The translations under genes were made by a program, and so were the position numbers. Positions 14,569 through 62,617 of a stretch of DNA of 64,000 nt are shown piece after piece; positions within the stretch are counted from its first letter, which is position 1; every line of letters starts with the position of its first letter. Source of the stretch: Escherichia coli (GTDB lineage Bacteria; Pseudomonadota; Gammaproteobacteria; Enterobacterales; Enterobacteriaceae); NCBI RefSeq assembly GCF_003334305.1, contig NZ_QOWS01000018.1. One strand, written 5' to 3'. The notes under the pieces are model-generated. The model was not told the DNA's origin. It was given only the letters and a program-made list of their open reading frames with translations, and did not search any database.

Positions 14569-15228
14569 TTAATCGCGGCTAGCGAAGCCCAGAATGCTCA
14601 GCAGGCTGACGAAGATGTTGTACAGCGAAACATACAGGCTAACCGTGGCACGAATATAGTTCGTCTCACCGCCATGAATGATGTTGCTGGTTTCAAACAA
14701 GATAGCGCCAGAGGAGATCAGAATGAAGACCGCGCTGATCGCCAGATGCAGAGCAGGCAGTTGCAGGAAGATATTAGCAACCATACCAATCAGCACCACC
14801 ACAATACCCGCCATCAGCATACCGCCGAGGAACGACATATCTTTGCGGGTGGTCAGCACATATGCAGAGCAGCAGAAGAACACTAACGCCGTTCCGCCCA
14901 GTGCCATAGCGATTACGTCACCCATTCCGGCAGACAGATAGGTGTTCAGAATAGGTCCGAGGATATAACCCAGAAAACCGGTAAAGGCGAATGCGGAGAT
15001 AATCCCGGTCGGCTTATTCGCCGTTTTATAGGTCAGGAACATCAAACCATACATACCCACCAGCGTCAGAATCAGACCCGGAGATGGCAGCATCAGCACC
15101 GTACTGGCAGTTGCGGTAATCGCCGAAAAGGCCAGCGTCAGGCTCAGCAGAAAATAGGTATTACGCAGCACCTTATGGGTGCTAAGCAGTGATGTACGGT
15201 CATGTGAAGAACTAACAATACGATCCAT
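14569..15228 (-). CDS. yccA: BAX-inhibitor-1 family membrane protein YccA (FtsH modulator)
   Basis: 219-aa polytopic [32 protein letters not shown]..., recognised as YccA. Confidence 0.94.
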
Positions 15229-50087: not shown

Positions 50088-50693
50088 TTAGCCGTTAAGT
50101 TTAACTGCCAGACCTGCGACATATTCCCCTTGATAACGAGCAATAGACAGTTCTTCCTGGCTTGGCTGGCGTGAGCCGTCACCGCCTGCGATGGTTGTTG
50201 CGCCGTACGGCGTACCGCCGCGAACCTGTGAAACGTCAAATAATTCCTGCGCTGCGTAGCCAATGGGGACAATTACCATGCCGTGATGCGCAAGGGTCGT
50301 CCAGGTTGAAGTAATAGTTTGTTCCTGACCGCCGCCAGTACCGGTGGAACTAAAGACGCTCGCCAGTTTTCCGTATAGTGCGCCGGAAGCCCACAGGCCG
50401 CCCGTCTGGTCGAGGAAGGTACGCATTTGACCGGACATGTTGCCAAAGCGGGTAGGTGTACCAAAAATAATGGCGTCGTAATCGGCCAGTTCTTGCGGGG
50501 TTGCAACCGGTGCAGTTTGCGTTTTACCGCCTGCTTTTTCAAATAATTGCGGCGGCATGGTTTCCGGTACACGCTTAACGACAACTTCTGCGCCATCCAC
50601 TTTGCTTGCACCCTCAGCGACTGCGCGTGCCATCGTTTCAATATGTCCGTACATGGAATAATAAAGCACTAGTATTCTTGCCTTAACACTCAT
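50088..50693 (-). CDS. wrbA: NAD(P)H:quinone oxidoreductase WrbA with an element-encoded substitute N-terminus
   Basis: The 201-aa ORF is identical in pattern to recalled WrbA from [21 protein letters not shown] onward. It begins MSVKARI instead of the K-12 MAKV. Those first codons and the GGAG RBS lie inside the inserted element (50670-50705). Confidence 0.9.
50663..50669. repeat. attL junction core (AAAGCAC)
   Basis: This is the last bases matching the wrbA sequence as recalled (GTGCTTT on the gene strand). The sequence diverges from 50670. Confidence 0.75.
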
Positions 50694-50744
50694 ATCATTG
50701 TTCTCCTGTTCAATGAACCACTTAGATAAGCATAGTCCGAAGAT

Positions 50745-52388
50745 ATGAAGCTGCTAGTGACATACATCAGGTGGAGTACTAAAGAGCAAGACTCAGGAGA
50801 CTCCTTAAGACGACAAACAAACCTCATTGATGCTTTCTACTCTAAGCACAAAAACGATTATTACCTTCTTCCTGCTCACAGATACGTTGATAAGGGTAAA
50901 TCTGGTTTTCACCAGCAACATAAGAATCAAGGTTCTGACTTCAGACGTATGTTTGAAAATGTTATGTCTGGGGCTATTCCAGAAGGTTCCCTGATTGTTG
51001 TAGAGAACTTTGACCGCTTCAGTAGGGCTGATATCGACACAGCTATAGATGATGTCAGGCAGATACTGAGGAAGGGAGTCTCTATACTGACTCTGGGAGA
51101 TGGTGAACTCTACGACAAGTCAGCATTAACAGACCCTGTGAAGCTGATTAAGCACATCATCATAGCTGAGCGAGCACATCAGGAATCTCTTGTTAAACAA
51201 AAGCGTATAGCTCAGGTCTGGAACCATAAAACACAGCTTGCAAGAGAACTTAAGAAGCCTATGGGTAAGCAAGCCCCCGGATGGTTAGAGCTATCAGAAG
51301 ACGGTTCACACTACATCGTTGATGAAGATAAAGCGTCACTGGTGAATATCATCTATGACAAGCGTCTTTCTGGTATGTCGATGTTTGCTATCTGCAAATG
51401 GCTAAACGAACAAGGTTACCCGACCATTAATCAGCGTAAGGTCAGAATATCCAAGACTAAGAAACCGGATGGTAACTGGTCAGCTTTAAGCGTTAAACAC
51501 ATCCTGACTTCACGAAGTGTATTAGGTTACCTTCCCGCTAAGATTTCTACAGAAGACCGTAAAACAGTGTTACGTGAAGAAATTGAAGGGTTCTATCCTC
51601 AGATTGTCACAGATTCTAAGTTTTACGCTGTACAGCAACTGTTAGAGGAAACAGGGAAGGGGAAAACATCCAGCGGTGACCACTGGTTATACGTGAACAT
51701 ACTGAAGGGGCTTATCCGTTGTAAGTGTGGGCTTGTAATGACTCCTACAGGGATACGTAAACCCGTTTATCAAGGTACTTACCGTTGCAATGGTAATAAG
51801 GAGTCCCGTTGTAGCTACGGTACAGTGTCCAGAAAGTTACTTGATACACAGCTTTGTAGTCGTCTGTTTAGCAAACTGTCACAGCTACACGATGAAGCTA
51901 CCGATACAGCTAAATTAGATGAACTACAAAGAAGATTAAACACCGTTGATGGTGAACTGGAAAAACTCACTGAGACGCTGATACAGCTTCCTAACATCAC
52001 TCAGATTCAAGAAGCACTACGGGTTAAACAGGAAGAAAAAGATGAACTGATAGTTCAGTTATCACGAGAAAAGGCGAGGGTAAAATCTGTATCAAGCTTG
52101 GATTTAAGCGGTCTTGATATGGAGTCTGTAGAGGGGAGAACTGAAGCCCAGATTATCATTAAGCGTCTGGTGAAAGAGATTGTTGTTTCTGGTAATGAAA
52201 AGCTGGTGGATATATATCTTCACAATGGAAATATGATTCGTGGTTTCCCTCTTGATGGTAAAGATGACCACACCTTAACGCTTGAAGAAGCAACCGATGA
52301 GATGCAGTCACTAGATGATATGCTTATTTTTGGTGAACCAGTAACAAGGATTTATCCTGCTGGTGATATGGAAGAGGTGGACGCTTAG
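50745..52388 (+). CDS. Large serine recombinase (integrase)
   Basis: 547 aa. N-terminal catalytic domain with YIRWSTKEQ (Ser nucleophile) and [11 protein letters not shown] recombinase domain, Cys-rich zinc-ribbon-like segment (CKCG...[14 protein letters not shown]) and a coiled-coil-like C-terminal region ([22 protein letters not shown]) follow. Confidence 0.88.
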
Positions 52389-53173
52389 TATTTTTTATTA
52401 GGGTTCACTGAGTACTTTTTAAGCTTTGAAGCTACTCGACCAGCGTTACTATTAGCATTGGTGACGTTGGTTTTTTCAGCTTCTGTTAAGTCTGAATAGT
52501 CCAGCTTCCAAGCCTTATTACACTTAATCTGAGCATCGAGAATATCATTTCTGATAGCTGGAGCGTAACCGGATACATCGCTAATACTCATTAGCTCTTT
52601 GCACGATAGCATAGGCGCGTTATTGCGTTCAGTGGTCACGTTACCTGCATTCTTCTTACTGGTCACACCACCATCATTCGTAGTCGCGGCTTTTCCAGTT
52701 GCAGCCGAGATATCAGTCTGCCCCACAACAGCTTTGAAGTTAATTTCCTGAAAAGTTAGTTGGATTCTTAATCCGTTTGAAATTCCAACATCTTTAGAGG
52801 CTTTAAAACTTGTGATAATGGAATCATCAATTTTAATTCCGTCTTTACAGATGACAGAAATAATCTGCTTCTGGTCACGCCAGTTTTCCAGAGTGTCAAT
52901 GAAGTTCTCTACTAATTGACCCTGACGAGTTAATAGTAAGCTTCCTTCATAACCAACTACAACGACACCACTGATAGTGATTGTTCTGGGTGCTCTTTGA
53001 ACATTATCTGTGACGGTTTGCCCTGATTGCATGTTCTGTGTAGTCACCTGCATAGGGCTATCAAATTCCATATTTTCAGTTGCTGATAAGGTTAAGAAGG
53101 CATCTACATTATCTCTTAAGTGGAAGTAAACGCCATCTTTGCCACTGTAGCGGATTTGATTGCTAAAAATCAT
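52385..53173 (-). CDS. Putative distal-tail/baseplate (Dit-like) protein
   Basis: Start set at ATG 53173, with AAGGAG six nt upstream, rather than the track's TTG at 53194. It lies immediately downstream of the tape-measure gene. The segment [34 protein letters not shown] resembles, from memory, the N-terminal pattern of Dit-like tail proteins. Not verified. Confidence 0.45.
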
Positions 53174-53190
53174 TAAATTCTCCTTTGATT

Positions 53191-53234
53191 TCAAAGGCTT
53201 AGTGTATTTTAATCATTTTTAACCAAGCCTTTGA
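53191..53234 (-). promoter_or_regulatory. 5'-leader hairpin preceding the Dit-like gene RBS
   Basis: Perfect 10-bp inverted repeat TCAAAGGCTT (53191-53200) / AAGCCTTTGA (53225-53234) with a 24-nt loop, between repeat cassette R1 and the RBS. Confidence 0.5.
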
Positions 53235-53253
53235 TATATAAGTATTTTCTCTG

Positions 53254-53323
53254 TTAAGCGTGAGCTACGTAAATTCTATTTTTCAGTGCGGGTATTAACT
53301 TTGCTTTATTCACGTAGAACACC
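53254..53323 (-). promoter_or_regulatory. Repeat cassette R1 (promoter-like) upstream of the Dit-like gene
   Basis: 70 bp, about 88% identical by eye to 55517-55586. On the gene strand it carries TAGAAT (complement of 53273-53278) with no good -35, plus CTACGTGAA and TACGTA boxes. Confidence 0.55.
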
Positions 53324-53329
53324 GTTAAA

Positions 53330-55498
53330 TCAATCATCTTCTGGGAATGATGAACTTAATAACGTAGCTTCTGCATATTGGTCGTAGATATTACTGCTAA
53401 AGGTCATAAAGCTGGTTTCATCTGGTTTAATGGCAACTTCACCACCAAGTGAAACTTTCACAGGCTCCTGAATACGCTTACTTAAAGCAGAGATTTCATC
53501 CCTCAGACCCTGAATATCTGCACTCGTTAATGCTGAATCTTGCTTAATGTTGTTTAATTCTGGATGATTGAATCTTGCAATATTCATTGTGGCATTGTTA
53601 AACAATTCACCCATTGAACTAAAAATTCTACTCCATCCTTCGTTAATCACATTCGGTTTATTAGGGTCACCAGAATACACAGGATTAAAGTCACTACCCA
53701 CACCTACCCCAGATGGATGCATATTAGCGTTTTTGACTACTTCCTGATTCATAAAATCCAGTGCTTTCTTCAATGCATATAAACCAAGAGTGACACCTCT
53801 GATTTGTGGAATCATTGAAGCTAATGCTAACGCTGTTTCATAACCGTCATCAGCATAACCAATTGCAAGAGCACTACCTACACCACCAGCTACACCTTTC
53901 AGTTTTCCACCACCTTTACCAGTAGCTACCTGACCAGCCACCTGATTAGCTCTTGTACCTAACGTTGTGATTGCTCTTGTCAGGTTCATAACCCCTGTAG
54001 TAGCACTGAATAGTGTCTTTGCAGATAACGCTATAGCAAGACCTTTGACGAAGTTGATAAATCCATCACCGACTTCATCAAGTAGCTTTCGCTTAGTGTC
54101 ATCAAGGCTGTAATAGGTCTTCTTAATCTGTAGAATCCAGCCTTCAAGGTGATTGTTAAAGATACGGATGTCATCTACACCAGCTTTAAGCATGTCGATA
54201 AGTCCACCGATAGCATCACCAGCGATAGAAGAACTCATACCCATTTCACTAAGCAGGTTACTCAGGCTGGATAAGAAGCCATTTAGCTCATCCTGTGAAC
54301 CTGAGAAGATTTTCACCATCGTATCATCCCAGTTGTTAGCCAGTTTCCCTAAAGCTGTCTGAGTGCTCTTAGCGACTTCAGCCCAGCCACCCGCTTTATC
54401 AATCATCAAGCCCATCTGTTTAGCGACTTTAGGGAGAGTATCACTACTTAAAATCTTCCCGTCTTTCATCGCTTTATCAAGCTCTGTAGCAGTCATACCC
54501 AGTGCTTCAGCGAATAGCTTAAATGCACCAGCCATACGGTCACCTAACTGACCACGAAGCTCTTCAGCCTGAATCTTGCCCTTGCTCGCCATCTGCTCAA
54601 ATGCTTTCAAAATGCCGTTTAGCTCATCGTTAGAAAGCCCCATTAAGCGACTCATAGCCGTTGCATTACCAAATAGCTCCTGTGTCTGTTCCTGTGACAT
54701 AGAACCCTGAGCACCTGCTGCAAACTTAGCGTAGCTTGATAGCCCTTCAGAGATATTAAGACCTGTCTTGTCTGCTAAATTTCGAATAAATACCTCAGCT
54801 TCAGATGCTTTATCACCAAGTACAAACTTAGCGGCTCTCTGTGCGGAATCTCGTTTAAGACCTGCATTCATGATGGCCTTGTAAGCGTTAAGAGCACCCA
54901 TCACAGAGTAAAATGCACCAGATAACTTGATTGCATTGCTTGCAAGATTATTAAATGCGTCGCTTGTATTGTTAATGCTGGTGGATGTATGACCTTTAGC
55001 TTTAGCAATTGCTTCTCTGACTGAAGCATTTAACTGAGTCAGCTTCTCATTGAATTTTGAAGAATCCATTGACCCAGCTTTAGCAGATAGCCCGTAAAAC
55101 TGAGATTTGATGTATTTCTGCAAAATAGGGTCAAAGCCTTTTAGCTTAGACATATTAGCTGAGTAAGCCGCTGTGATTGCTCTGTTGCCGCTAATTCGTG
55201 GCTGTCTTGGTTGTCTAAGTGGCTTTAAAGTGTCATCAATTTCCGTTTTAATCTTAAACGCTCTAGTGTTTTTAAGACGCTGCTCAATCTTGGAAACAGT
55301 TTTATCGACATTCTTTTCCATTAGTTTGAGAGAATCATTTAAAGGCGTAGGGTTAACTCTGAATGCCTTATTTAGTCGTTTCTCAATTCTTGATGCGATT
55401 TGCATCGTTTGTTTCTCGGCTTTTTCCAAGCCTTTTAAAACTTTCTGAGAGCTAAAACTTAGCTCAATCAAAAAATCATCAACTTTAAATTGTGCCAT
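53330..55498 (-). CDS. Phage tail tape-measure protein
   Basis: 722 aa, Ala/Gly/Leu-rich and predicted largely helical. The segment LNGILKAFEQMASKGKIQAEELRGQLGDRMAGAFKLFAEALGMTATELDKAMKDGKILSSDTL matches the conserved tape-measure core domain as I recall it (TIGR02675-type). A Gly-rich tract GKGGGKLKGVAGGVG follows. RBS is AAGAGGTG. Confidence 0.85.
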   Translation of the reverse strand: MAQFKVDDFLIELSFSSQKVLKGLEKAEKQTMQIASRIEKRLNKAFRVNPTPLNDSLKLMEKNVDKTVSKIEQRLKNTRAFKIKTEIDDTLKPLRQPRQPRISGNRAITAAYSANMSKLKGFDPILQKYIKSQFYGLSAKAGSMDSSKFNEKLTQLNASVREAIAKAKGHTSTSINNTSDAFNNLASNAIKLSGAFYSVMGALNAYKAIMNAGLKRDSAQRAAKFVLGDKASEAEVFIRNLADKTGLNISEGLSSYAKFAAGAQGSMSQEQTQELFGNATAMSRLMGLSNDELNGILKAFEQMASKGKIQAEELRGQLGDRMAGAFKLFAEALGMTATELDKAMKDGKILSSDTLPKVAKQMGLMIDKAGGWAEVAKSTQTALGKLANNWDDTMVKIFSGSQDELNGFLSSLSNLLSEMGMSSSIAGDAIGGLIDMLKAGVDDIRIFNNHLEGWILQIKKTYYSLDDTKRKLLDEVGDGFINFVKGLAIALSAKTLFSATTGVMNLTRAITTLGTRANQVAGQVATGKGGGKLKGVAGGVGSALAIGYADDGYETALALASMIPQIRGVTLGLYALKKALDFMNQEVVKNANMHPSGVGVGSDFNPVYSGDPNKPNVINEGWSRIFSSMGELFNNATMNIARFNHPELNNIKQDSALTSADIQGLRDEISALSKRIQEPVKVSLGGEVAIKPDETSFMTFSSNIYDQYAEATLLSSSFPEDD

Positions 55499-55516
55499 TG
55501 TTCATATTTCACCTCT

Positions 55517-55586
55517 TTAAGCGTGAGCTACGTAAATTCTATTTTTCAGTGTGGGTATTAGCTTTACAGATTTCACGTAGCACACA
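55517..55586 (-). promoter_or_regulatory. Repeat cassette R2 (promoter-like) upstream of the tape-measure gene
   Basis: Second copy of the 70-bp cassette. TAGAAT (complement of 55536-55541) lies about 38 nt upstream of the TMP ATG, directly downstream of a terminator. Confidence 0.55.
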
Positions 55587-55616
55587 TAGGATTCGATAGA
55601 AGACTATCTCATATAC

Positions 55617-55656
55617 AAAAAAGGAGAGTTACCGATGTCACTCGATAATCTCTCCC
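55617..55656 (-). terminator. Rho-independent terminator ending the 236-aa/71-aa transcription unit
   Basis: On the minus strand, GGGAGAGATTA...TAACTCTCC forms a hairpin (stems at 55650-55655 and 55623-55628) followed by a T6 run (55622-55617). Confidence 0.7.
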
Positions 55657-55699
55657 GTAGATTTTTACCCAACCAATTCTATTAGAAGCTAATCTCAAA

Positions 55700-55915
55700 T
55701 TAATGGTAAACGTAAGAATACATCCCATCATCACCTAAAATCTGTGCGTCACATGGTAATTTATCTAAGCACCATGAAGGAATCTTACGTACCTTTGGTT
55801 TATGTGAGGTGATAACTTGATGCTGATTTTTAATTCGTAGCTTTGGTTTAGTCTGAAGCTTTAAGTTCTCACAAACAGACTTAATAAGTTCATAGCGTTC
55901 TGTTAAATCAATCAT
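55700..55915 (-). CDS. Hypothetical protein (71 aa)
   Basis: ORF MIDLTERYELIKSVCENLKLQTKPKLRIKNQHQ... with RBS AAGAGGTGG. No family recognised. Confidence 0.6.
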   Translation of the reverse strand: MIDLTERYELIKSVCENLKLQTKPKLRIKNQHQVITSHKPKVRKIPSWCLDKLPCDAQILGDDGMYSYVYH

Positions 55916-55938
55916 TCACCACCTCTTTTAATTCATAG

Positions 55939-56649
55939 TTAAAGTGCCTTGCTATATTTCTGAGAAATCTTCACTAACTGCTCAATATCAGCCTGCATAG
56001 CAATCTTCTTCTGCGTTTCATATGCAGAAATAAGCTCTTTCATAGCCTGAAGCTCTCTTGAGAGATACAACTTAACATTTTCAAGTTGCTTGTTACGTGA
56101 TGCCAAGATGTTCTGTCTGGCAAGTTCAGCGAGTTCTTCATCGCTCTTATTAGTCGTGTAAATAAACTGACCAGCACCCCTTGAAGCTTTAACCATCTTC
56201 ACAATTCGATATCCAGCAGGAAGACTACTAATCACGGCTGCGACGTTTTCTTGAAAAGTACCAAAACCATCATTGTCTTCGTATGTGAAGTAAACATACG
56301 GCTTCTGTGACAATTCATCCTGAATCTCAAATTCTGACGGCTCAATAGCTGATTGCATCAGGGTAACTTTACTGTAAGCATCATCTAGTTTAATACGCTG
56401 TGCTTTTAGCAGTGGGTAATATTCACGCTCAAGCTCAAGTAATGCTTCAGTTTTGCATACATCAGGCATCTCTTGAGGCTCAGGAGACACAAAGATGATT
56501 TCCTTTGGTGACATTCGGATTTCTTGCTCAAGCTTAATTCTTTCATCGTGTTCTTTACGCTGAATAGCGATAGCTGGATGTTCAGTCTGTGGCGACCAGT
56601 CACCGAAGCTATCAATCACTTTGCCATTAATGTAAATATCATTTGTCAT
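55939..56649 (-). CDS. Hypothetical protein (236 aa) with a coiled-coil-like C-terminus
   Basis: ORF MTNDIYINGKVIDSFGDWSPQTEHPAIAIQ... with RBS GAGGAA. The C-terminal 70 aa are heptad-rich (LENVKLYLSRELQAMKELISAYETQKKIAMQADIEQL). No family recognised. Confidence 0.7.
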   Translation of the reverse strand: MTNDIYINGKVIDSFGDWSPQTEHPAIAIQRKEHDERIKLEQEIRMSPKEIIFVSPEPQEMPDVCKTEALLELEREYYPLLKAQRIKLDDAYSKVTLMQSAIEPSEFEIQDELSQKPYVYFTYEDNDGFGTFQENVAAVISSLPAGYRIVKMVKASRGAGQFIYTTNKSDEELAELARQNILASRNKQLENVKLYLSRELQAMKELISAYETQKKIAMQADIEQLVKISQKYSKAL

Positions 56650-56679
56650 TGTTTTTTCCTCTTCTAAGCTAAAGTATTT

Positions 56680-56765
56680 CAGTTTTTAAAAAGCACACCT
56701 GACAGCCTATCTAAACTTAGAAGAGACTTAAAAGGCGGTTTGCCAAGTATGCTTTTTAAAAGCTG
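56680..56765 (-). promoter_or_regulatory. Long inverted repeat in the leader of the 236-aa gene
   Basis: Arms CAGTTTTTAAAAAGCACAC (56680-56698) and GTATGCTTTTTAAAAGCTG (56747-56765) are complementary at about 17 of 19 positions, separated by about 48 nt. Confidence 0.5.
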
Positions 56766-56801
56766 AAAAAGCCCTAGATAACTAAAACGCTATAAAGGGC
56801 T
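56765..56801 (-). terminator. Attenuator-like hairpin plus T-run inside the leader
   Basis: On the minus strand, AGCCCT (56801-56796), a 20-nt loop, AGGGCT (56775-56770), then TTTTT (56769-56765). Located about 115 nt upstream of the 236-aa gene start. Confidence 0.4.
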
Positions 56802-57008
56802 AAGGTGAAGAAATTAAAACATCTAAAGGATTCAATAACGAATGAACAAAGACTTTTCGAGATAGCCTCTCAGGTTGTATAAGAGGCCATGTAGCGAAAA
56901 GCATTGCACCTTTCAGAATGTTCGGTATAGAACATACCTCACCAACTCAGAATATCCATCCATCGGATTATTGAAATAAATAAGAGAGAAATTCTCTCTA
57001 TAATTAAA

Positions 57009-57037
57009 ATTATGTCATGCTTAAGGTTATTTGTCAA
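57009..57037 (-). promoter_or_regulatory. Sigma70-type promoter (minus strand)
   Basis: TTGACA (complement of 57032-57037), a 17-bp spacer, then CATAAT (complement of 57009-57014). Followed at about +3 by the palindrome AGAGAGAA-A-TTCTCTCT (56983-56999). Confidence 0.55.
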
Positions 57038-57062
57038 CAGCTTTTTAACAGATTGGTAACAT

Positions 57063-57128
57063 TTATACTTTAATAGATGCACCTGCAATCATACCAATCA
57101 ACACAAAACAGAGAATCACCAATTCCAT
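57063..57128 (-). CDS. Candidate 21-aa hydrophobic peptide
   Basis: Hand-translated: MELVILCFVLIGMIAGASIKV. Its ATG overlaps the TAA of the upstream gene (TAATG), suggesting translational coupling. Confidence 0.4.
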   Translation of the reverse strand: MELVILCFVLIGMIAGASIKV

Positions 57129-57451
57129 TAATGCACCACCTTCGAATCCGTAACCAGAATATTATCGCTGTACAAAATTGCTATAGCCGCCTTGAGATAT
57201 TTTTCAGGGCTAACGCTGTATTTGTTCGTTTGCTCGACAACCAATCTTTTCATGTTGCTGTCTTTAATTGGTAGCATCATTCGAGGCTCGTTAAACTCCA
57301 CCGACTGAATAAAGTCAGAGATGCTTTCCGCATTATCAGTCATTAACTCTAACAACTTATCAAAGTCAATGCTAACACCTACATCAGTGAAAGCCTGAAT
57401 CATCATGGCGGTGTCGGTATCAATAAAAATCTGTAATTCGTAATTGTTCAT
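57128..57451 (-). CDS. Hypothetical acidic protein (107 aa)
   Basis: Start set at ATG 57451 (MNNYELQIFIDTD) with AAGGAG upstream. The track's TTG start at 57484 is rejected. No family recognised. Confidence 0.65.
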   Translation of the reverse strand: MNNYELQIFIDTDTAMMIQAFTDVGVSIDFDKLLELMTDNAESISDFIQSVEFNEPRMMLPIKDSNMKRLVVEQTNKYSVSPEKYLKAAIAILYSDNILVTDSKVVH

Positions 57452-57606
57452 TTTTAAAATCTCCTTTTTACCAGACCTCCTCAATCGCTCTGTAACGAGC
57501 TAAACAGTCTTTTTCAGGGGTAGCCTGTACAGTGGTATTACCCACCCTAAAATAAGATAGTTTTTTGCGTCAGAATGCGATTGAGAGCGTCTGAGAAGCT
57601 GTTTTT

Positions 57607-57894
57607 CTAATTTCTCTTAAAGTCTCGGACTTGCATAAGATTTTTTGGTCTGGTATCGGCTCTGTTACCATTTCGATGGATAATTTGCTTGTTGGATTGA
57701 TAGCCATGATAAAGAAACCAGACAACATATTTCACGTAGAAAGTATATCGGCCTATATTAAATGTTTTGTTGCCGTAGTCGTCGGTGTTTATCGTGACTG
57801 ACTCTCCATCAGACCAGCACAGGGAATCACTGGATTCATCATAGATAAGGTGTTCTGCAAAATATCTTCTAACATCTTCATTCCAAGGTTTCAT
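57607..57894 (-). CDS. HNH-like small protein (degenerate motif)
   Basis: 95 aa. YVVWFLYHGYQSNKQIIHRNGNRADTRPKNL resembles the HNH_3-type pattern (aHRlvw...G..idHiNGn..DNR..NL), but the usual Asp preceding the His and the DNR Asn are substituted. Confidence 0.5.
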   Translation of the reverse strand: MKPWNEDVRRYFAEHLIYDESSDSLCWSDGESVTINTDDYGNKTFNIGRYTFYVKYVVWFLYHGYQSNKQIIHRNGNRADTRPKNLMQVRDFKRN

Positions 57895-58106
57895 AAAACC
57901 TCCTCACCCCAATAACCTAATTCAATCTTGTGACGCTCAAACCATTCCGGTTTAACTGCTGTTTTCAGTACTTCATTTGGGCCAATGGCTTTAATGAAAA
58001 TATCTTTTGAGTTATGGATGTCACCGAATCCGTTTCCTTCAATCAGGAGGTCGGAGATGTAGCGAATCATTTTATCCGTGTGGTATTCAAAGGTAACGCA
58101 TAGCAT
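57891..58106 (-). CDS. Hypothetical protein (71 aa)
   Basis: ORF coupled at both ends: TAATG with the upstream gene and ATGA with the downstream gene. No family recognised. Confidence 0.6.
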   Translation of the reverse strand: MLCVTFEYHTDKMIRYISDLLIEGNGFGDIHNSKDIFIKAIGPNEVLKTAVKPEWFERHKIELGYWGEEVL

Positions 58107-58387
58107 TAAACCTCCAGAGACAGCTTGTGAATCTTAAGACTCAATAGACGGGCAATATCAATTTTAAAGCCGTTAAGTCCCTTCAAAGTATCTAAAGCGT
58201 CCTGAGTAATTCGGATGTGTTTACGACCTTTAGAGACTGGATATTTAAGTAAATCCGACTCAGTAACCTCTTTAGCAATTGCAAGCTGCATAACAGTCTG
58301 ATGAGGTAAGTTAGTAGCTCGTTTAATTCTGGCAAGCTCGTTAAAAGCTTCCTCTGAAATGCGGGTTAAAGTGTGTTTGTTTTTCAT
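58106..58387 (-). CDS. Putative tandem ribbon-helix-helix DNA-binding protein (93 aa)
   Basis: Two internal segments look like an RHH beta-strand plus helix: KHTLTRISEEAFNELARIKR and RKHIRITQDALDTLKGLNG. Inference from the pattern only. Confidence 0.4.
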   Translation of the reverse strand: MKNKHTLTRISEEAFNELARIKRATNLPHQTVMQLAIAKEVTESDLLKYPVSKGRKHIRITQDALDTLKGLNGFKIDIARLLSLKIHKLSLEV

Positions 58388-58388
58388 T

Positions 58389-58943
58389 TTAAAATTCCTC
58401 TGTAACTAAATACGGGTCAAATTCAAAGTCTGGTTCACTGGTTGTAAGGCTGATATTTCCAACTTCCGCATGATGATTAATTGTCTCAATAACTTTCATG
58501 CAAATAGTGGCTAAGTTAGCGCAATATTTATCACTTGGTAATTCGTAGCTAAGTCTGGTTGCTTGTCTTTGAAGATGGCTCGTCACTGTGCTTGAACTAA
58601 TCTCATCAAGACTTCGCAGTAAATAAAAAACCTTCCGGTGATAATTATCTCTTCCAAGACTGCGACAAGTACCGATAATTACATCTTCAATTCGTGGCGG
58701 TAATTGCTCGTAAGAATCAAAGCCCATCAAGAAAGTTTTTAAAGTATTCTCTTTTTCTTTGCGTGCTGGCATAAATCTGTCTCGTGGCGTAATGCTACGA
58801 ATGACCGCTTCAATGTTCTTACGTTCGGATTTGCTAAAGGTTGGGACTTCGTAGCTGGTGGGGGTGTCTGTGTGGCTGTAACCGTTGTGTCTGTTGCGTT
58901 CTCTTGATGCCTGAAGCATCGCTCTAAATTCTCTGTCGTTCAT
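58389..58943 (-). CDS. Hypothetical protein (184 aa), first gene of the leftward operon
   Basis: ORF MNDREFRAMLQASRERNRHNGYSHTD... directly downstream of the promoter at 58994-59022. No family recognised. Confidence 0.65.
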   Translation of the reverse strand: MNDREFRAMLQASRERNRHNGYSHTDTPTSYEVPTFSKSERKNIEAVIRSITPRDRFMPARKEKENTLKTFLMGFDSYEQLPPRIEDVIIGTCRSLGRDNYHRKVFYLLRSLDEISSSTVTSHLQRQATRLSYELPSDKYCANLATICMKVIETINHHAEVGNISLTTSEPDFEFDPYLVTEEF

Positions 58944-58993
58944 TCATAAGCTAGTCCTTATAATTGTTAATTCTCTGTTAACTTATATATACA

Positions 58994-59022
58994 ATACTAG
59001 CATTTTCAAAGACTAATGTCAA
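58994..59022 (-). promoter_or_regulatory. Sigma70-type promoter of the leftward operon
   Basis: TTGACA (complement of 59017-59022), a 17-bp spacer, then TAGTAT (complement of 58994-58999). Confidence 0.6.
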
Positions 59023-59029
59023 GCATTTT

Positions 59030-59059
59030 TTAACATTTCATTAACATCTGTGGTATAAT
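59030..59059 (+). promoter_or_regulatory. Divergent extended -10 promoter (rightward)
   Basis: TTAACA (59030-59035), then TGG-TATAAT (TG at 59051-59052, TATAAT at 59054-59059). Back-to-back with the leftward promoter. Confidence 0.55.
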
Positions 59060-59186
59060 GGTTCTATGGGGAGAGTAAAATATAAAGGCGTGGCTATGAG
59101 GTTTATTCGATAGGGGTTGGTACAAGCCCAACCAACCGAATCAACTATGTATGTCACATGGTATTGCATTGCACACAGGAAATTTA

Positions 59187-59363
59187 ATGGTAAATCTCCC
59201 TCCTGAACTGGGGTCACCTGATGTATGGGCTGGTGGAGGTATCGGGCTGATTGCAGGTCTGTTACTCCGCTACGTCCTTGTCAGAGTGCTTGTTGTGTTC
59301 CGATTGTTCGGTCGTACATGGACGCTTGACCTTAAGGATAATGAGCACACAGAACCCCGTTAA
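59187..59363 (+). CDS. Candidate small membrane protein (58 aa; 70 aa if started at 59151)
   Basis: MVNLPPELGSPDVWAGGGIGLIAGLLLRYVLVRVLVVFRLFGRTW... contains one hydrophobic helix. AGGAA lies 5 nt upstream of ATG 59187, while the ATG at 59151 has no RBS. The local composition is more GC-rich than its neighbours. Confidence 0.45.
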   Translation: MVNLPPELGSPDVWAGGGIGLIAGLLLRYVLVRVLVVFRLFGRTWTLDLKDNEHTEPR

Positions 59364-59406
59364 GCTCCCTTCAAATCCCCCTGTACGAGATGGCATAGGG
59401 GTGTCT

Positions 59407-59422
59407 TTAGCATTTTGTGCTA
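59407..59422. promoter_or_regulatory. Operator-like inverted repeat TTAGCA-N5-TGCTA
   Basis: TTAGCATTTTGTGCTA. The 18-nt box TCTTTAGCATTTTGTGCT (59404-59421) recurs at 60678-60695, and each copy is followed by (A)CTTGACA(G/A)AA. Confidence 0.45.
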
Positions 59423-59483
59423 TCTATTAAAAAATAACTTGACAGAACCGGAAAGCTGTATCTATCAGGTATTCACCTCTCTG

Positions 59484-59559
59484 ACAGTAACTTCTAAAAG
59501 TTCTTATTTTTCAATGAGTTGTAATCACCCATATATAGAGAACTGACAAGTCTCTTCAC
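59484..59559 (+). repeat. 76-bp direct repeat, copy 1
   Basis: ACAGTAACTTCTAAAAGTTCTTATTTTTCAATGAGTTGTAATCACCCATATATAGAGAACTGACAAGTCTCTTCAC. About 89% identical to copy 2, and the last 31 nt are identical. Confidence 0.9.
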
Positions 59560-59578
59560 AATTAACTCTGTAACCTTA

Positions 59579-59654
59579 ACAGTGATTTCTAAAAATGCTT
59601 ATTTTTCAATAAGTTGTAATTAGCCATATATAGAGAACTGACAAGTCTCTTCAC
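59579..59654 (+). repeat. 76-bp direct repeat, copy 2
   Basis: ACAGTGATTTCTAAAAATGCTTATTTTTCAATAAGTTGTAATTAGCCATATATAGAGAACTGACAAGTCTCTTCAC. The period is 95 bp. Confidence 0.9.
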
Positions 59655-59971
59655 GGAGAACTTCCTGGACTCACTAAGATACAAGGCGATAACCCCAGAA
59701 AGGGAGAGCCACCTTCTAATTGGTATTGTTATGAGGATGCTTCATCCGAATCATCTACCAATCCCTAAACCGACTTCTTAAACAATCTTTACAGACCCCG
59801 TTCACCAGTCTCAATATTTTTATTTCTCGCTCTTCGTTTGTTGCTCGTTTCTATTATTGAGGGGGTTTGAAAAACCTCTGTAAAATAACCCTTCCAGTAA
59901 AAAGCGAATAACCCCAGAGAGGGGGAATCGCCTCTTTAACATTCTCATAATCAGTGCTCTATATGAGAATT

Positions 59972-60640
59972 TCAGCCCAACCTTTGAACAATCTTGTAAG
60001 TGGTGCTTAGAGGCATTCTTAGCGATTCTGCGATGCTCTTGACGGATTGCCCTTGGCCATGCAGTTTAATCAGCCTGTCAAGCGTCTGTGCATCGTGTAT
60101 ATGAGGTCTTCCACGTAAACCACCCCTGTTAACCACGGCAAGTAAAAGCATTGTGTCGCCACAATAGATTGTTTGTGTAACTTCAACCTTCGGTTTACGG
60201 GGTGTGTTCCTGTATATCAAAACGCAACTTGCAAACGGTGAACGCACTACAACACCTTTCTTCCCTGCTGGTGGAAGGTATTTGACTGCTCGGTGTAACG
60301 TTCGAATCTCATGCAGAAAGGGGTTTGTATATACACACCGAAGCCAGTAAGTTGTCTTTGACCTGTGCGGAACCAGACATACACACACATCAGCTTCATG
60401 GGATTTTAGGAGGAACCTTTCAGCCATGCTAAACGGCGGGTTAACGAAGACCCGTTCACCAACCCATGATTGATTGTGAATATCATCGGTGAACCGTGGC
60501 AACAATGCGTCATGCTCAGTTGCAGCACCATCCATCGAAAAACCAAATTCACGGTGTAGGTTACGAAATAAACGATACGGTGTACGCCAGTCATCAGAAC
60601 CACCATGATAACGACCGACATTGATTATTGGATGTGACAC
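59972..60640 (-). CDS. Phage Dam-type N6-adenine DNA methyltransferase fused to a C-terminal HTH
   Basis: 222 aa with a GTG start. SDDWRTPYRLFRNLHREFGFSMDGAAT and VFVNPPFS (NPPF catalytic motif) fit the phage Dam family (pfam05869-like, from memory). The C-terminal GQSVKSIAESLRMPLSTTYKIVQRL looks like a resolvase-type HTH. Confidence 0.75.
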   Translation of the reverse strand: MSHPIINVGRYHGGSDDWRTPYRLFRNLHREFGFSMDGAATEHDALLPRFTDDIHNQSWVGERVFVNPPFSMAERFLLKSHEADVCVCLVPHRSKTTYWLRCVYTNPFLHEIRTLHRAVKYLPPAGKKGVVVRSPFASCVLIYRNTPRKPKVEVTQTIYCGDTMLLLAVVNRGGLRGRPHIHDAQTLDRLIKLHGQGQSVKSIAESLRMPLSTTYKIVQRLG

Positions 60641-60677
60641 AAGCGAAGCGCCCCTCTTAGTATATTTCTTAATCGTC

Positions 60678-60724
60678 TCTTTAGCATTTAGTGCTTTTTG
60701 TTAAGTTTAGCACTTTTTGCTAAA
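60678..60724. promoter_or_regulatory. Two operator-like inverted repeats upstream of the methyltransferase gene
   Basis: TTAGCATTTAGTGCT (60681-60695) and the perfect TTTAGCA-CTTTT-TGCTAAA (60706-60724), followed by TTGACA at 60735-60740. Confidence 0.45.
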
Positions 60725-61142
60725 GACAAAACACTTGACAAAATGGTAAGATTGTTCACATGACCTTACTTAACAGATTCTTAAGAGCTTTGAAACGAAC
60801 TGTTTAACAAGGTCACTACCTCTGGTCTTATCGTTCCCTCTCTTCTTGGTAGTTCTGTTAAGTATCTTTTCAGGTATCTCTTACAGTCACTGTTAAGATA
60901 GAACCTACCTTCGGTTTCATGGTTCTCTTCCTCCCGTTAAATATCCCTTCACAGTCAGACTAAATAACACCTCTGTAGTTTCTTGGTAGAATCTTTCAAG
61001 GTAACTTAACTCTGAGTTTATGAAGTTGACCTTAGTCAATGTTTGTGAAGGTGTTACAGAGCATGTTCTCTAGGTCTGTGTAGCTCACTAAGCGAGAGAG
61101 GGGATATGTGACCATAGGGGAACCCCTCCTGTTAAAAGTTTC

Positions 61143-61170
61143 TTGATGTTATCATCACAATATGTATAAT
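61143..61170 (+). promoter_or_regulatory. Sigma70-type promoter (plus strand) in an ORF-free region
   Basis: TTGATG (61143-61148), a 16-bp spacer, then TATAAT (61165-61170). Confidence 0.55.
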
Positions 61171-61176
61171 CACCAA

Positions 61177-61337
61177 CTGTACAGACACCTTAACGGTTTC
61201 TCTACACCTCACTATGGCTAGGTAGGGTATGGTTTAGCTTGGTACGGCTAGGTTAGGTCTGGTTTGGTTAGGTATGGGTGGATTGTCGTAGCCACGTTAA
61301 AAATCGACTTATAGGGACTCTTTCGGGAGTCCTTTTT
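61177..61337 (+). ncRNA. Candidate ~160-nt small RNA with tandem 15-nt G/T-rich units
   Basis: Bounded by the promoter at 61143-61170 and the terminator at 61315-61337. It contains no ORF longer than 5 codons. Five consecutive 15-nt units begin at 61216, 61231, 61246, 61261 and 61276 (GGCTAGGTAGGGTAT / GGTTTAGCTTGGTAC / GGCTAGGTTAGGTCT / GGTTTGGTTAGGTAT / GGGTGGATTGTCGTA). Confidence 0.35.
61315..61337 (+). terminator. Rho-independent terminator (plus strand)
   Basis: GGACTC (61315-61320), loop TTTCGG, GAGTCC (61327-61332), then TTTTT (61333-61337). Confidence 0.65.
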
Positions 61338-61541
61338 AGTTTGTATAAAATCTGTACAGGAGTTATCAGGCTTCTAAAATTTTTATAAAAAATAATCAGA
61401 CCTCTTCTAAGCCTCTTCAACCAAATCTTTCGAAAATATCTGACAGATGTCTGTAGCTGCTAAGTACCCGTCACACCAGCTATGTGACCCCCTTGGCAAA
61501 AAAGCCAAATATCAGCTACATCCATGTAACTATTCAGTAAC

Positions 61542-62093
61542 TTATTTAGCAAGTCTGTAATAAGTTGCTCTAGAGATTCCTAACTCTTCCTGAATCTGCA
61601 ACCTCGTCTTACCTTGTGAAATAAGCGTCTGTACAGCCTCTGAAGAAGCCTTTACAGGCCTCCCCATATGTACCCCTTCAGCTTTAGCACGTTCAATACC
61701 AGCCTTTCTACGCTCTGCTATCAAGCTTCTTTCAAGCTGTGCCAACGTTGACATAATGCCTAACATTGCTTCACCCATAGCGCTTGATAAGTCAAACCCT
61801 TCTCTAAGGCTGATAACTGTCACACCTTTAGCCTGTAGCGCTTTAACCGTTGATAACACATCAATTGTGTCACGTCCAAGACGGTCTACAGCTACCACAA
61901 CTACGGTGTCACCTTCTCGTGCATAAGCTAACAAACTACTGAAACCGTTTCTTAAAGAAGCTTTGACAGAACCACTGACAGCTTCATCAGTGAACCATTT
62001 AGCAATGTTGTACCCTGCCTCTTCAATTTGCATTTGCTGGTTAGTGATGGATTGGTCATCTGTACTCACCCTGCAATATCCAAGTATCGCCAT
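61542..62093 (-). CDS. Small serine recombinase (resolvase/invertase family)
   Basis: 183 aa. MAILGYCRVSTDDQ (Ser nucleophile), VVAVDRLGRD, an E-helix LAQLERSLIAERRKAGIERAKAEG, GRP, and a C-terminal HTH ISRATYYRLAK. Confidence 0.9.
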   Translation of the reverse strand: MAILGYCRVSTDDQSITNQQMQIEEAGYNIAKWFTDEAVSGSVKASLRNGFSSLLAYAREGDTVVVVAVDRLGRDTIDVLSTVKALQAKGVTVISLREGFDLSSAMGEAMLGIMSTLAQLERSLIAERRKAGIERAKAEGVHMGRPVKASSEAVQTLISQGKTRLQIQEELGISRATYYRLAK

Positions 62094-62107
62094 ACATCCC
62101 CCTTAGA

Positions 62108-62231
62108 AGTCTCAAAAGTTAGTCTCATAAGTTTAGCTGTCTCATAATCCAAAAACAACCTTTTGAGACTACTTGAGGGTGCATTCTACCGTTACGTTGA
62201 AAGTGTCTCAAAAGGAAGTCCTTTTAAGACT
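62108..62231. promoter_or_regulatory. res-like cluster of recombinase binding sites
   Basis: There are six GTCTCA / T(G/A)AGAC half-sites. They include a 28-bp inverted pair TGTCTCAAAAGGAAGTCCTTTTAAGACT (62204-62231), a 33-bp inverted pair TGTCTCATAATCCAAAAACAACCTTTTGAGACT (62138-62170), and AGTCTCAAAAGTTAGTCTCATAA (62108-62130) next to the recombinase start. Confidence 0.6.
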
Positions 62232-62427
62232 GGTTATGAAGGAGCTATGAAGATTTTAGGAGGGTAACTATAACCATCACTTTCTAACTTTCACGTAGGA
62301 AATCGTTAAGTTTCTTGATAGTTACACCATGTGACCAACTATCTATATATCGTTATATAGCCCTGTATATAACACTTTTCTAGGAGTCGAGAGAGGGACG
62401 ACTAACACGATACAGTTTACCCTGAAA

Positions 62428-62447
62428 AGAGACTTCACAGATTCTCT
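62428..62447. repeat. Inverted partial third copy of the 76-bp repeat core
   Basis: AGAGACTTCACAGATTCTCT compares with the reverse complement of AGAGAACTGACAAGTCTCT (59537-59555 and 59632-59650). It is flanked by TCTCTATATAT and TTCAATAAGTT, which are also shared with the repeats. Confidence 0.7.
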
Positions 62448-62610
62448 ATATATTTCAATAAGTTAGGCTAAAAAGAGACTATACCGATACTGTATAGAAT
62501 CTGTGTAGAATTGCTTAGATACTTGGAAAAATGCCTTTAAATTGAATAGGTACTAACCTGTTTATGTCCTGTTATTAACAGGTAGTTGAATGTACGTGTT
62601 TAGCTATGTA

Positions 62611-62617
62611 AAAGCAC
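62611..62617. repeat. attR junction core (AAAGCAC)
   Basis: Identity with the native wrbA 5' end as recalled resumes here (AAAGCACCAGAACTTTAGCCAT is the complement of ATGGCTAAAGTTCTGGTGCTTT). Confidence 0.75.

Follow-up and report, generated by a model that had tools for sequence, protein, structure and literature searches.

The window analyzed in this study, a 64,000-nucleotide (64-kb) stretch of Escherichia coli contig NZ_QOWS01000018.1 (assembly GCF_003334305.1), contains an integrative island that carries a gene for a small serine recombinase of 183 amino acids (aa), preceded by six half-sites that are arranged as three pairs. The gene and the half-sites probably constitute a self-contained resolution cassette, in which a resolvase similar to those of Tn3 and gamma-delta would act on its own 124-bp res-like site and reduce multimers of the island to monomers. 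This view draws on the relationships of the protein, the geometry of the half-sites and their conservation among relatives from several kinds of islands.

The recombinase gene and its res-like site

Both the Pfam domain search and the comparison with solved structures supported the proposal, made in an earlier interpretation of the letters and open reading frames (the sequence-only reading), that the 183-aa protein is a small serine recombinase. The protein matched the Resolvase domain (PF00239) with an E-value of 6e-42, and its C-terminus matched the HTH_7 domain (PF02796) with 26.9 bits vs. a cut-off of 23.8 (E 5e-6). Among solved structures, gamma-delta resolvase was the best match (E 3e-31; 38% identity over the full length), followed by Tn3 resolvase (8.6e-29), with Gin invertase (8e-22) and Sin (1.5e-13) scoring behind the resolvases. 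All of the catalytic residues that were checked are present, namely Y6, R8, the nucleophile S10, Q14, the DRLGRD motif and the ER pair of the E-helix, and the same set, including S10 and DRLGRD, is kept throughout the recombinase clade. The top NCBIfam match was the Mpi invertase model, at 93.6 bits well under its cut-off of 272, and some database entries label relatives of the recombinase 'DNA invertase'. By these sequence comparisons, the protein is a small serine recombinase of the resolvase/invertase superfamily that is nearer to the gamma-delta and Tn3 resolvases than to the invertases or Sin.

Six half-sites of 12 bp with the consensus AGTCTCAAAAGG were identified 5' of the recombinase gene, the sixth and weaker one being TGTCTCATAATC at 62138. 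The hexamer GTCTCA, from which the half-sites had been noticed in the sequence-only reading, occurs 14 times in the window, with five of these copies located within 62109-62210. All five matches of the window to the 11-bp pattern WGTCTYAWAAG lie within 62108-62231 (0.18 matches expected). When the window was scanned with a weight matrix, the six half-sites were the top six matches (13.7-19.1 bits) and the next match scored 13.3 bits; shuffled sequence contained at least as many of the weaker matches. The six half-sites are the predicted binding sites of the recombinase, which together form a three-part res-like site.

The coordinates of the three sites and of the other features discussed here are listed in Table 1. 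Relative to the ATG of the recombinase gene, site III is located at -39 to -15, site II at -77 to -45 and site I at -138 to -111, and the distances between centres are 63.5 bp from site I to site II (approximately six helical turns) and 34 bp from site II to site III, within a total res length of 124 bp; the spacer separating sites I and II has 33 bp. Site I has a 13-2-13 structure, and its central dinucleotide (62217-62218) is AG on the plus strand and CT in the orientation of the gene. The extents given earlier for the two inverted pairs, sites II and I, were borne out. A proximal pair had been placed at 62108-62130; the pair itself is present, but it ends at 62132, and its half-sites form a head-to-tail direct repeat rather than an inverted one.

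Table 1. Coordinates of the cassette, its parts and related features in the 64-kb window
Feature	Coordinates	Strand	Basis
Small serine recombinase gene, 183 aa	61542..62093	minus	Open reading frame list; Pfam catalytic domain and C-terminal HTH_7
Ribosome-binding site GGGGGA, a few bases 5' of the recombinase ATG	62097..62102	minus	Direct sequence reading
Site III, 25 bp, adjoining the gene; half-sites 62108-62119 and 62121-62132, head-to-tail	62108..62132		Motif scan and relatives
Site II, 33 bp; inverted half-sites 62138-62149 and 62159-62170; centre GGTTGWTTTT with T-tract	62138..62170		Motif scan and alignment
Site I, 28 bp; inverted half-sites 62204-62215 and 62220-62231; presumed crossover site	62204..62231		Motif scan and relatives
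Predicted sigma-70-like promoter of the recombinase gene, TTGAGA-17-TAGAAT	62183..62211	minus	Best match in 61200-62700, 10/12 positions
Portable cassette (gene and res), ~730 bp	61502..62233	minus	Window vs. L022; homology between island types
Host element, 11.9-kb island in the 5' end of wrbA	50673..62610		Comparison with the empty site in K-12 MG1655; E. coli A7 annotation
Large serine recombinase (island integrase), 547 aa	50745..52388	plus	Pfam Resolvase and Recombinase; PHROG 95 integrase E 5e-78
GGT-rich phased repeats and conserved box, noncoding	61213..61308		73-79% identical to a Felix O1-like intergenic segment

The -35 element of the predicted promoter lies inside the gene-proximal half of site I, with sites II and III located downstream of the -10 box, and the -10 box, (T/C)AGAAT, is kept in seven of nine aligned lineages. 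Since the predicted promoter overlaps site I and sites II and III fall in the leader, occupied sites would repress the recombinase gene, which suggests autoregulation of the recombinase.

Conservation and distribution of the cassette

Relatives with 61-73% protein identity to the recombinase were found in E. albertii and other E. coli islands (L004, L008 and L010), a Klebsiella record (L011), Enterobacter hormaechei (L014), Raoultella/Klebsiella (L015-L017), Yersinia enterocolitica (L018-L020) and E. coli C-type islands (L009 and L013). Most of these relatives, which represent five island types, have all six half-sites in the strand pattern + - + - - -, and at each half-site that was detected the distance from the start codon differs by no more than a few bases. 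In the Klebsiella record and the Yersinia loci, one half-site of site III was under the scan threshold, yet it was seen in the alignment. Site III's head-to-tail orientation and offsets are common to all relatives that are at least 61% identical. In an alignment of nine sequences, the half-sites and the centre of site II were conserved, while the other spacers and the flanks diverged, and the similarity ended at the outer edge of site I. The centre of site I is CT in the clade of the window and TC in the E. coli C-type relatives.

The relatives with approximately 52% identity have another recognition helix (ISPASVKRA/VSPATVKRA vs. ISRATYYRL/ISKATFYRL), and one of them, L012, has half-sites of the AGCTCAAA type instead. 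In addition, the recombinase gene of L008 (14566-15114) is a mosaic, which is 73% identical overall to that of the window and has a much more diverged catalytic domain, while the last ~60 residues, comprising the end of the E-helix and the helix-turn-helix, and the whole res are essentially identical to those of the window. Judged from these sequences, the mosaic points to intragenic recombination that kept the DNA-binding domain together with its sites. The mosaic of L008 and the joint switch of helix and half-sites in L012 show that the DNA-binding domain and the site sequence travel and change together.

Two further features of these loci were observed. In L012 (3840-3976), which is located on E. 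coli plasmid pEC224_4, a TnAs1 transposase gene is followed, 136 bp after its end, by the 52% identical relative, and the only visible half-sites are those of the AGCTCAAA type near the gene of this relative; the transposon may have displaced the part of the res that lay farther out. L008 and L004, approximately 10-60 bp past site I, and likewise L010, carry palindrome-containing insertions of ~50-70 bp, none of which is found in the window.

The extent of the cassette could be delimited by comparison with the island of strain MIN10 (L022), in which 363 unrelated bp (14638-15000) are present in place of 61502-62233 of the window. This island is without the recombinase and sites II and III, and a decayed site-I-like sequence, GTGTCTGTAAGTGATTTTTTAAGAATGG, is left at the corresponding place. 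Homology between different island types covers only -142/-137 to +446 relative to the ATG, i.e., res and the gene. No shared sequence was found outside res and the gene between the island types compared, and therefore the long noncoding gap 3' of the gene is not part of the module.

All DNA matches in E. coli were chromosomal (595 places, 0 on plasmids), and plasmid-borne relatives were at most 52% identical, with the exception of one Klebsiella 'plasmid' record with chromosomal-type genes. No Tn3-family transposase gene was annotated or called beside the cassette in 17 island-borne loci, in which terminal repeats were not specifically searched for. A search of IMG/VR returned only two contigs, of 52-55 kb, with the recombinase gene near one end.

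The cassette occurs both in islands with tyrosine integrases and in islands with serine integrases, and the genes near it differ among islands. Two AbiTii genes adjoin it in the Enterobacter island, SIR2, ImmA/IrrE and HigB are found near it in the E. coli C islands, and a Dam-like methyltransferase gene or a gene for a 221-aa protein stands beside it in E. coli islands. The Raoultella/Klebsiella islands with the cassette contain a major capsid gene, and those of Yersinia contain a DUF5906/VapE primase-like gene and DarT-NADAR; replication or packaging is expected for such islands with capsid- or primase-like genes. Thus, a compact resolvase-res cassette (approximately 730 bp) is in circulation in Enterobacterales, shared by small integrative islands of at least five kinds. 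A role of the small recombinase as directionality factor for the serine integrase was also considered and was rejected because the same cassette is present in tyrosine-integrase islands.

The host island and its phage-like sequences

The 10-bp core AAAGCAC(T/C)AG is found at both ends of the island (50663-50672 and 62611-62620). These repeats bound an 11.9-kb insert relative to the empty site of K-12, which agrees with the earlier description of an integrase-mobilised element, and the small recombinase does represent a second site-specific recombination system besides the large serine integrase. From left to right, the island encodes the 547-aa large serine recombinase, in which the match to Zn_ribbon_recom was under the Pfam cut-off, a baseplate/Dit-like protein, a tape-measure protein, several small proteins of no assigned function, an HNH endonuclease, a Dam-like methyltransferase and the small recombinase. 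The wrbA gene (50088-50693) is still annotated as intact, with 201 aa vs. 198 aa in K-12, because the left end of the island supplies a new start and N-terminus. The island loci compared were those of the window, L002, L003, L008, L010, L022, L027 and L029. The same architecture of ~12 kb is located between tonB and yciI in other strains, with a different large serine integrase, and DNA of the right end of the island matches approximately 10% of complete E. coli genomes (538-591/5426). Strain TUM9757 has a single copy of the island at tonB-yciI; the 41-kb stretch inspected does not include the other places at which this genome matches.

Several additional observations were made on the island. 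Its 184-aa protein is unrelated to the HTH_36 protein encoded at the equivalent spot in the Enterobacter island and has more than 1000 unannotated homologues, which among those listed are from Escherichia, Shigella and Salmonella. Between the genes for the 184-aa protein and the methyltransferase there is a gene-free stretch of ~1 kb (58944-59971), in which two 76-nt direct repeats (59484-59559 and 59579-59654) are located 95 bp apart. The repeats, which are 91% identical to each other, had no match in Rfam, against which the entire island was scanned with no meaningful result; they may be iterons or small RNA genes, among other possibilities. The gene for the Dam-like N6-adenine methyltransferase (PF05869; 59972-60640, minus strand) is variable cargo, absent from L002, L003 and L008, and the C-terminal tail of its product resembles HTH_7 (21.3 bits vs. 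a cut-off of 23.8). Shigella proteins that combine resolvase, Dam and HTH_7 domains were also found.

The tail genes and one noncoding segment of the island are related to sequences of Felix O1-like phages, which are virulent myophages with genomes of ~87 kb. The baseplate protein of the island is 73% identical to its counterpart in these phages and the tape-measure protein is 32% identical over ~500 residues, and the two counterparts are encoded by an adjacent gene pair in the phages. The noncoding segment with GGT-rich repeats is located ~230-330 bp downstream of the stop codon of the recombinase gene. It has a phasing of ~10 bp, with a 30-bp tandem repeat (61213-61272) and the box GGTATGGGTGGATTGTCGTAGCCACGTTAAAAATCGA, and is followed by a hairpin (61313-61334). 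In phage garuso, the matching Felixounavirus repeat region is flanked by the DNA ligase gene on one side and a hypothetical gene on the other. Eight island loci have the segment, and L008 and L022 gave no detectable copy of it. On the basis of this similarity, it may be a cis-acting site borrowed from the phages, with an origin or a packaging signal as candidates. In addition, a 69-nt sequence is present in two copies that are 88% identical (53254-53322 and 55517-55585), just 5' of the baseplate/Dit-like and tape-measure genes, and looks like a duplicated regulatory region for both phage-derived tail genes. A 202-bp query (55499-55700) that included the copy of this sequence 5' of the tape-measure gene had only one short match, of 38 bp, in the phage collection.

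The island is a candidate satellite of Felix O1-like phages or a candidate tail-assembly decoy. It is a reasonable but unproven idea that the island borrows phage replication or packaging via the cis segment, in which case concatemers would arise and the cassette would reduce them. In the literature searched, no paper on a link between Felixounavirus and satellites was found, nor any described tape-measure satellite, serine-recombinase island in wrbA, or resolvase of phage-inducible islands specific to this case. A bolder proposal combines these elements: the cassette would be a natural hybrid of Tn3- and Sin-type synapses that cuts concatemers to monomers ahead of their insertion by the serine integrase, the concatemers being formed when a helper drives replication or when Felix O1-like phages of ~87 kb fill their capsids with DNA of the 12-kb island, and the island would be an undescribed satellite or parasite of a virulent myophage in E. 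coli. As a whole this proposal is doubtful. The host island and its Felix O1-like link may be a more novel lead than the cassette.

Proposed function and comparison with known systems

In the mechanism proposed for the cassette, dimers of the recombinase would bind the three sites via the C-terminal helix-turn-helix. The two copies of res must be direct repeats on one supercoiled molecule; in the case of an integrative island, such a molecule is the excised island in dimeric or concatemeric form. Sites II and III of the two copies would then intertwine, the intertwining would join both copies of site I, and strands would be exchanged at the central dinucleotide of site I, so that the resulting monomers would become available to the large serine integrase for insertion. 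The same binding would silence the recombinase promoter through its -35 element within site I and through sites II and III, which lie within the transcribed leader. From the anatomy of the cassette and the precedent of the island SGI1 we infer multimer resolution, and hence a replicating circular phase of the island, together with the binding, catalysis, resolution selectivity and autoregulation that this mechanism presupposes and the multimeric island circles on which it would act.

Several points weigh against this reading. The head-to-tail site III is unlike the Tn3 and gamma-delta subsites in the literature examined, and for this reason the Tn3 synapse model is not transferable unchanged and the site is termed res-like rather than a canonical Tn3 res. 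Residues R2, K54 and E56, which make regulatory subunit contacts in gamma-delta resolvase, are not conserved in the recombinase, so that synapse assembly may differ in detail from that of gamma-delta. No replication gene was recognized by Pfam, PHROGs, NCBIfam and PADLOC scans of the island proteins, just as the sequence-only reading had stated, and no sequence evidence for circular or multimeric forms of the island was found. An 11.3-kb metagenome scaffold (L029) is chromosomal, matching the tonB-yciI flanks, with no terminal overlap, and its island is also without the cassette. Furthermore, of 591 E. coli genomes with a match to part of this region, just 183 have matches that extend over the cassette; approximately two thirds of the related islands are without it, and the cassette is therefore accessory and dispensable. 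Another contig of 11-12 kb (L031) had been considered as a free circle and was rejected, as chromosomal-type genes are located beyond its integrase gene.

The names of some relatives and the best NCBIfam match would fit a DNA invertase like Hin, Gin, Pin or Mpi, which inverts the DNA lying between two crossover sites of opposite orientation, and so would the core of site I, as invertase crossover sites have a non-palindromic 2-bp core between inverted half-sites. However, no second site I was found in the window at up to three mismatches, and the weight-matrix scan of the window found no further paired half-sites; the Mpi score is far from its cut-off, the resolvases outscore Gin, and adjacent accessory sites such as II and III are a hallmark of resolution systems. 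Because no partner site was found, this role was excluded for the window, where it is largely refuted and extremely improbable. The recombinase might also be kept mainly as a repressor, with the half-sites serving as the operator that controls its own promoter and, perhaps, transcription reading through into co-oriented genes. The best promoter match overlaps site I, with sites II and III downstream of its -10 box; no minus-strand terminator was predicted after the recombinase gene, and the genes downstream are co-oriented. Tn3 and gamma-delta resolvases double as repressors at res, and the weak resolvase-type helix-turn-helix at the C-terminus of the Dam-like methyltransferase would represent reuse of such a module in the island. 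A pure repressor could, however, lose the catalytic residues that are kept clade-wide, and the conserved 28-bp site I, the helical phasing of sites I and II and the three site lengths are needed by a synapse and not by repression. A purely regulatory role is considered unlikely.

It is quite improbable that res acts mainly as a crossover point at which co-resident islands swap cargo, with multimer resolution being secondary. Homology between island types does end at the outer edge of site I, variable or defence-type cargo adjoins the cassette (AbiTii, DarT-NADAR, SIR2, ImmA/IrrE, HigB, and the methyltransferase or the 221-aa gene), and recombination between transposons at site I of res is documented to swap passenger modules in the Tn3 family (PMC7157771). 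A crossover, however, would fall at the centre of site I and not at its edge, and cargo often clusters near island ends regardless. Moreover, such accessory sites normally block intermolecular reactions, and the Res protein of SGI1 shows very low inter-plasmid recombination (PMC12217951). The many related islands without the cassette could alternatively indicate a functionless leftover of the resolution system of a Tn3-family transposon or plasmid, and relatives with 50-52% identity are indeed located on plasmids, one of them directly beside a TnAs1 transposase gene. Against such a relic, neither the window nor the island loci examined have a Tn3-family transposase gene next to the cassette, and the 595 E. 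coli matches are all chromosomal. The intact frame and the six half-sites over 61-100% protein identity and five island types argue for purifying selection, and site I is visibly decayed where the gene has been lost (L022). The relic explanation is very improbable, and a functional resolution cassette remains the preferred interpretation.

Canonical res sites have a three-site design, of which Tn3 res, with 114 bp and three dimer sites, is an example (PMC9943657, PMC12217951, PMC7157771), and in them site III adjoins tnpR while site I is distal (PMC7157771; also PMC12217951). The cassette is similar to gamma-delta in the length of the protein, in a res that directly precedes the gene, site III being nearest to it and site I farthest, in a related half-site core, xGTCYxAxA, and in a T-tract at the centre of site II. 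A plasmid copy of a gamma-delta-type res (L023), which was measured by the same procedure as the res of the window, has sites of 28, 34 and 25 bp vs. 28, 33 and 25 bp in the window, and a distance of 34.5 bp vs. 34 bp between sites II and III. The order and spacing of sites that had been stated for Tn3 and gamma-delta in the sequence-only reading are matched by both this plasmid res and the literature. The window differs from L023 in the distance between sites I and II (63.5 vs. 53 bp) and in total length (124 vs. 114 bp). The longer distance corresponds to one more helical turn, which is inside the range of 4-7 turns reported for the Tn3 family, where 5 turns are usual (PMC12217951). As in Tn3 and gamma-delta, the promoter is embedded in res, that of the window being a predicted one. 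The subsites of Tn3 and gamma-delta are all inverted, whereas in the window this holds for sites I and II. The crossover centre is CT in the window and AT in Tn3 and gamma-delta, the rule for the class being AT/TA; since the active res of SGI1 has an AC centre, a CT centre does not disqualify the site for function. The cassette is further distinguished from Tn3 and gamma-delta by its location in chromosomal integrative islands without an adjacent Tn3-family transposase gene, whereas theirs is a replicative transposon, of which tnpA and terminal repeats of 38 bp are characteristic.

Accessory site III's head-to-tail arrangement is a feature shared with the res sites of Sin and beta, whose role is multimer resolution, as is proposed here for the cassette. 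Site II of Sin consists of head-to-tail motifs, is accessory and binds a catalytically inactive dimer, and Mouw et al. proposed that site III of Tn3 is functionally equivalent to it (PMC2428073). Unlike the res of the window, with its three sites in 124 bp, Sin res has two recombinase sites and a spacer bent by HU/IHF in 86 bp, and the Sin protein is a much weaker match to the recombinase than the resolvases. Hin, Gin, Pin, Cin and Mpi invertases resemble the recombinase in protein superfamily and size; unlike these systems, the window is without a second crossover site or invertible segment, and its accessory sites adjoin the crossover site. In the literature covered, which did not include the principal res-site survey (Rowland et al. 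2002), no description of a three-site res with a head-to-tail site III was found, and the novelty of this arrangement is uncertain. By combining Tn3 geometry with a Sin-like site at the very position that Mouw et al. equated with Sin site II, the cassette offers a natural test case for recombination mechanics, and its comparison with Tn3 could reveal the accessory-site features on which synapse topology depends.

The resolution system of SGI1 is the closest functional precedent for the cassette, likened to it by layout rather than by protein sequence. Its res, studied in restored form, has boxes of 28, 30 and 25 bp with AC at the crossover centre, and the resolvase (Res/S027) binds the three subsites and recombines them (PMC12217951). 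SGI1 Res removes multimers of the island after transfer, and many relatives carry the system in inactivated form (Veress et al. 2025, PMC12217951). Both systems have a Tn3-like res of three subsites upstream of the resolvase gene in an integrative island with its own integrase, both have a non-palindromic crossover centre, and both are dispensable or inactivated in many relatives. SGI1, which is helper-dependent, differs in that it has a tyrosine integrase, is mobilised by IncA/C plasmids and has its own replication origin (oriV on the published map); its box III is weakly symmetric and not a direct repeat. An SGI1-like helper dependence of the window island is suggested by its Felix O1-like tail genes and phage-like noncoding segment. 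The cassette extends what was found with SGI1, namely that integrative islands may have to deal themselves with the multimers they form. In conclusion, the system is of a known kind, a Tn3-like resolvase-res module, and is a variant of that kind in its head-to-tail site III, the six helical turns between sites I and II, its CT core and its portability.

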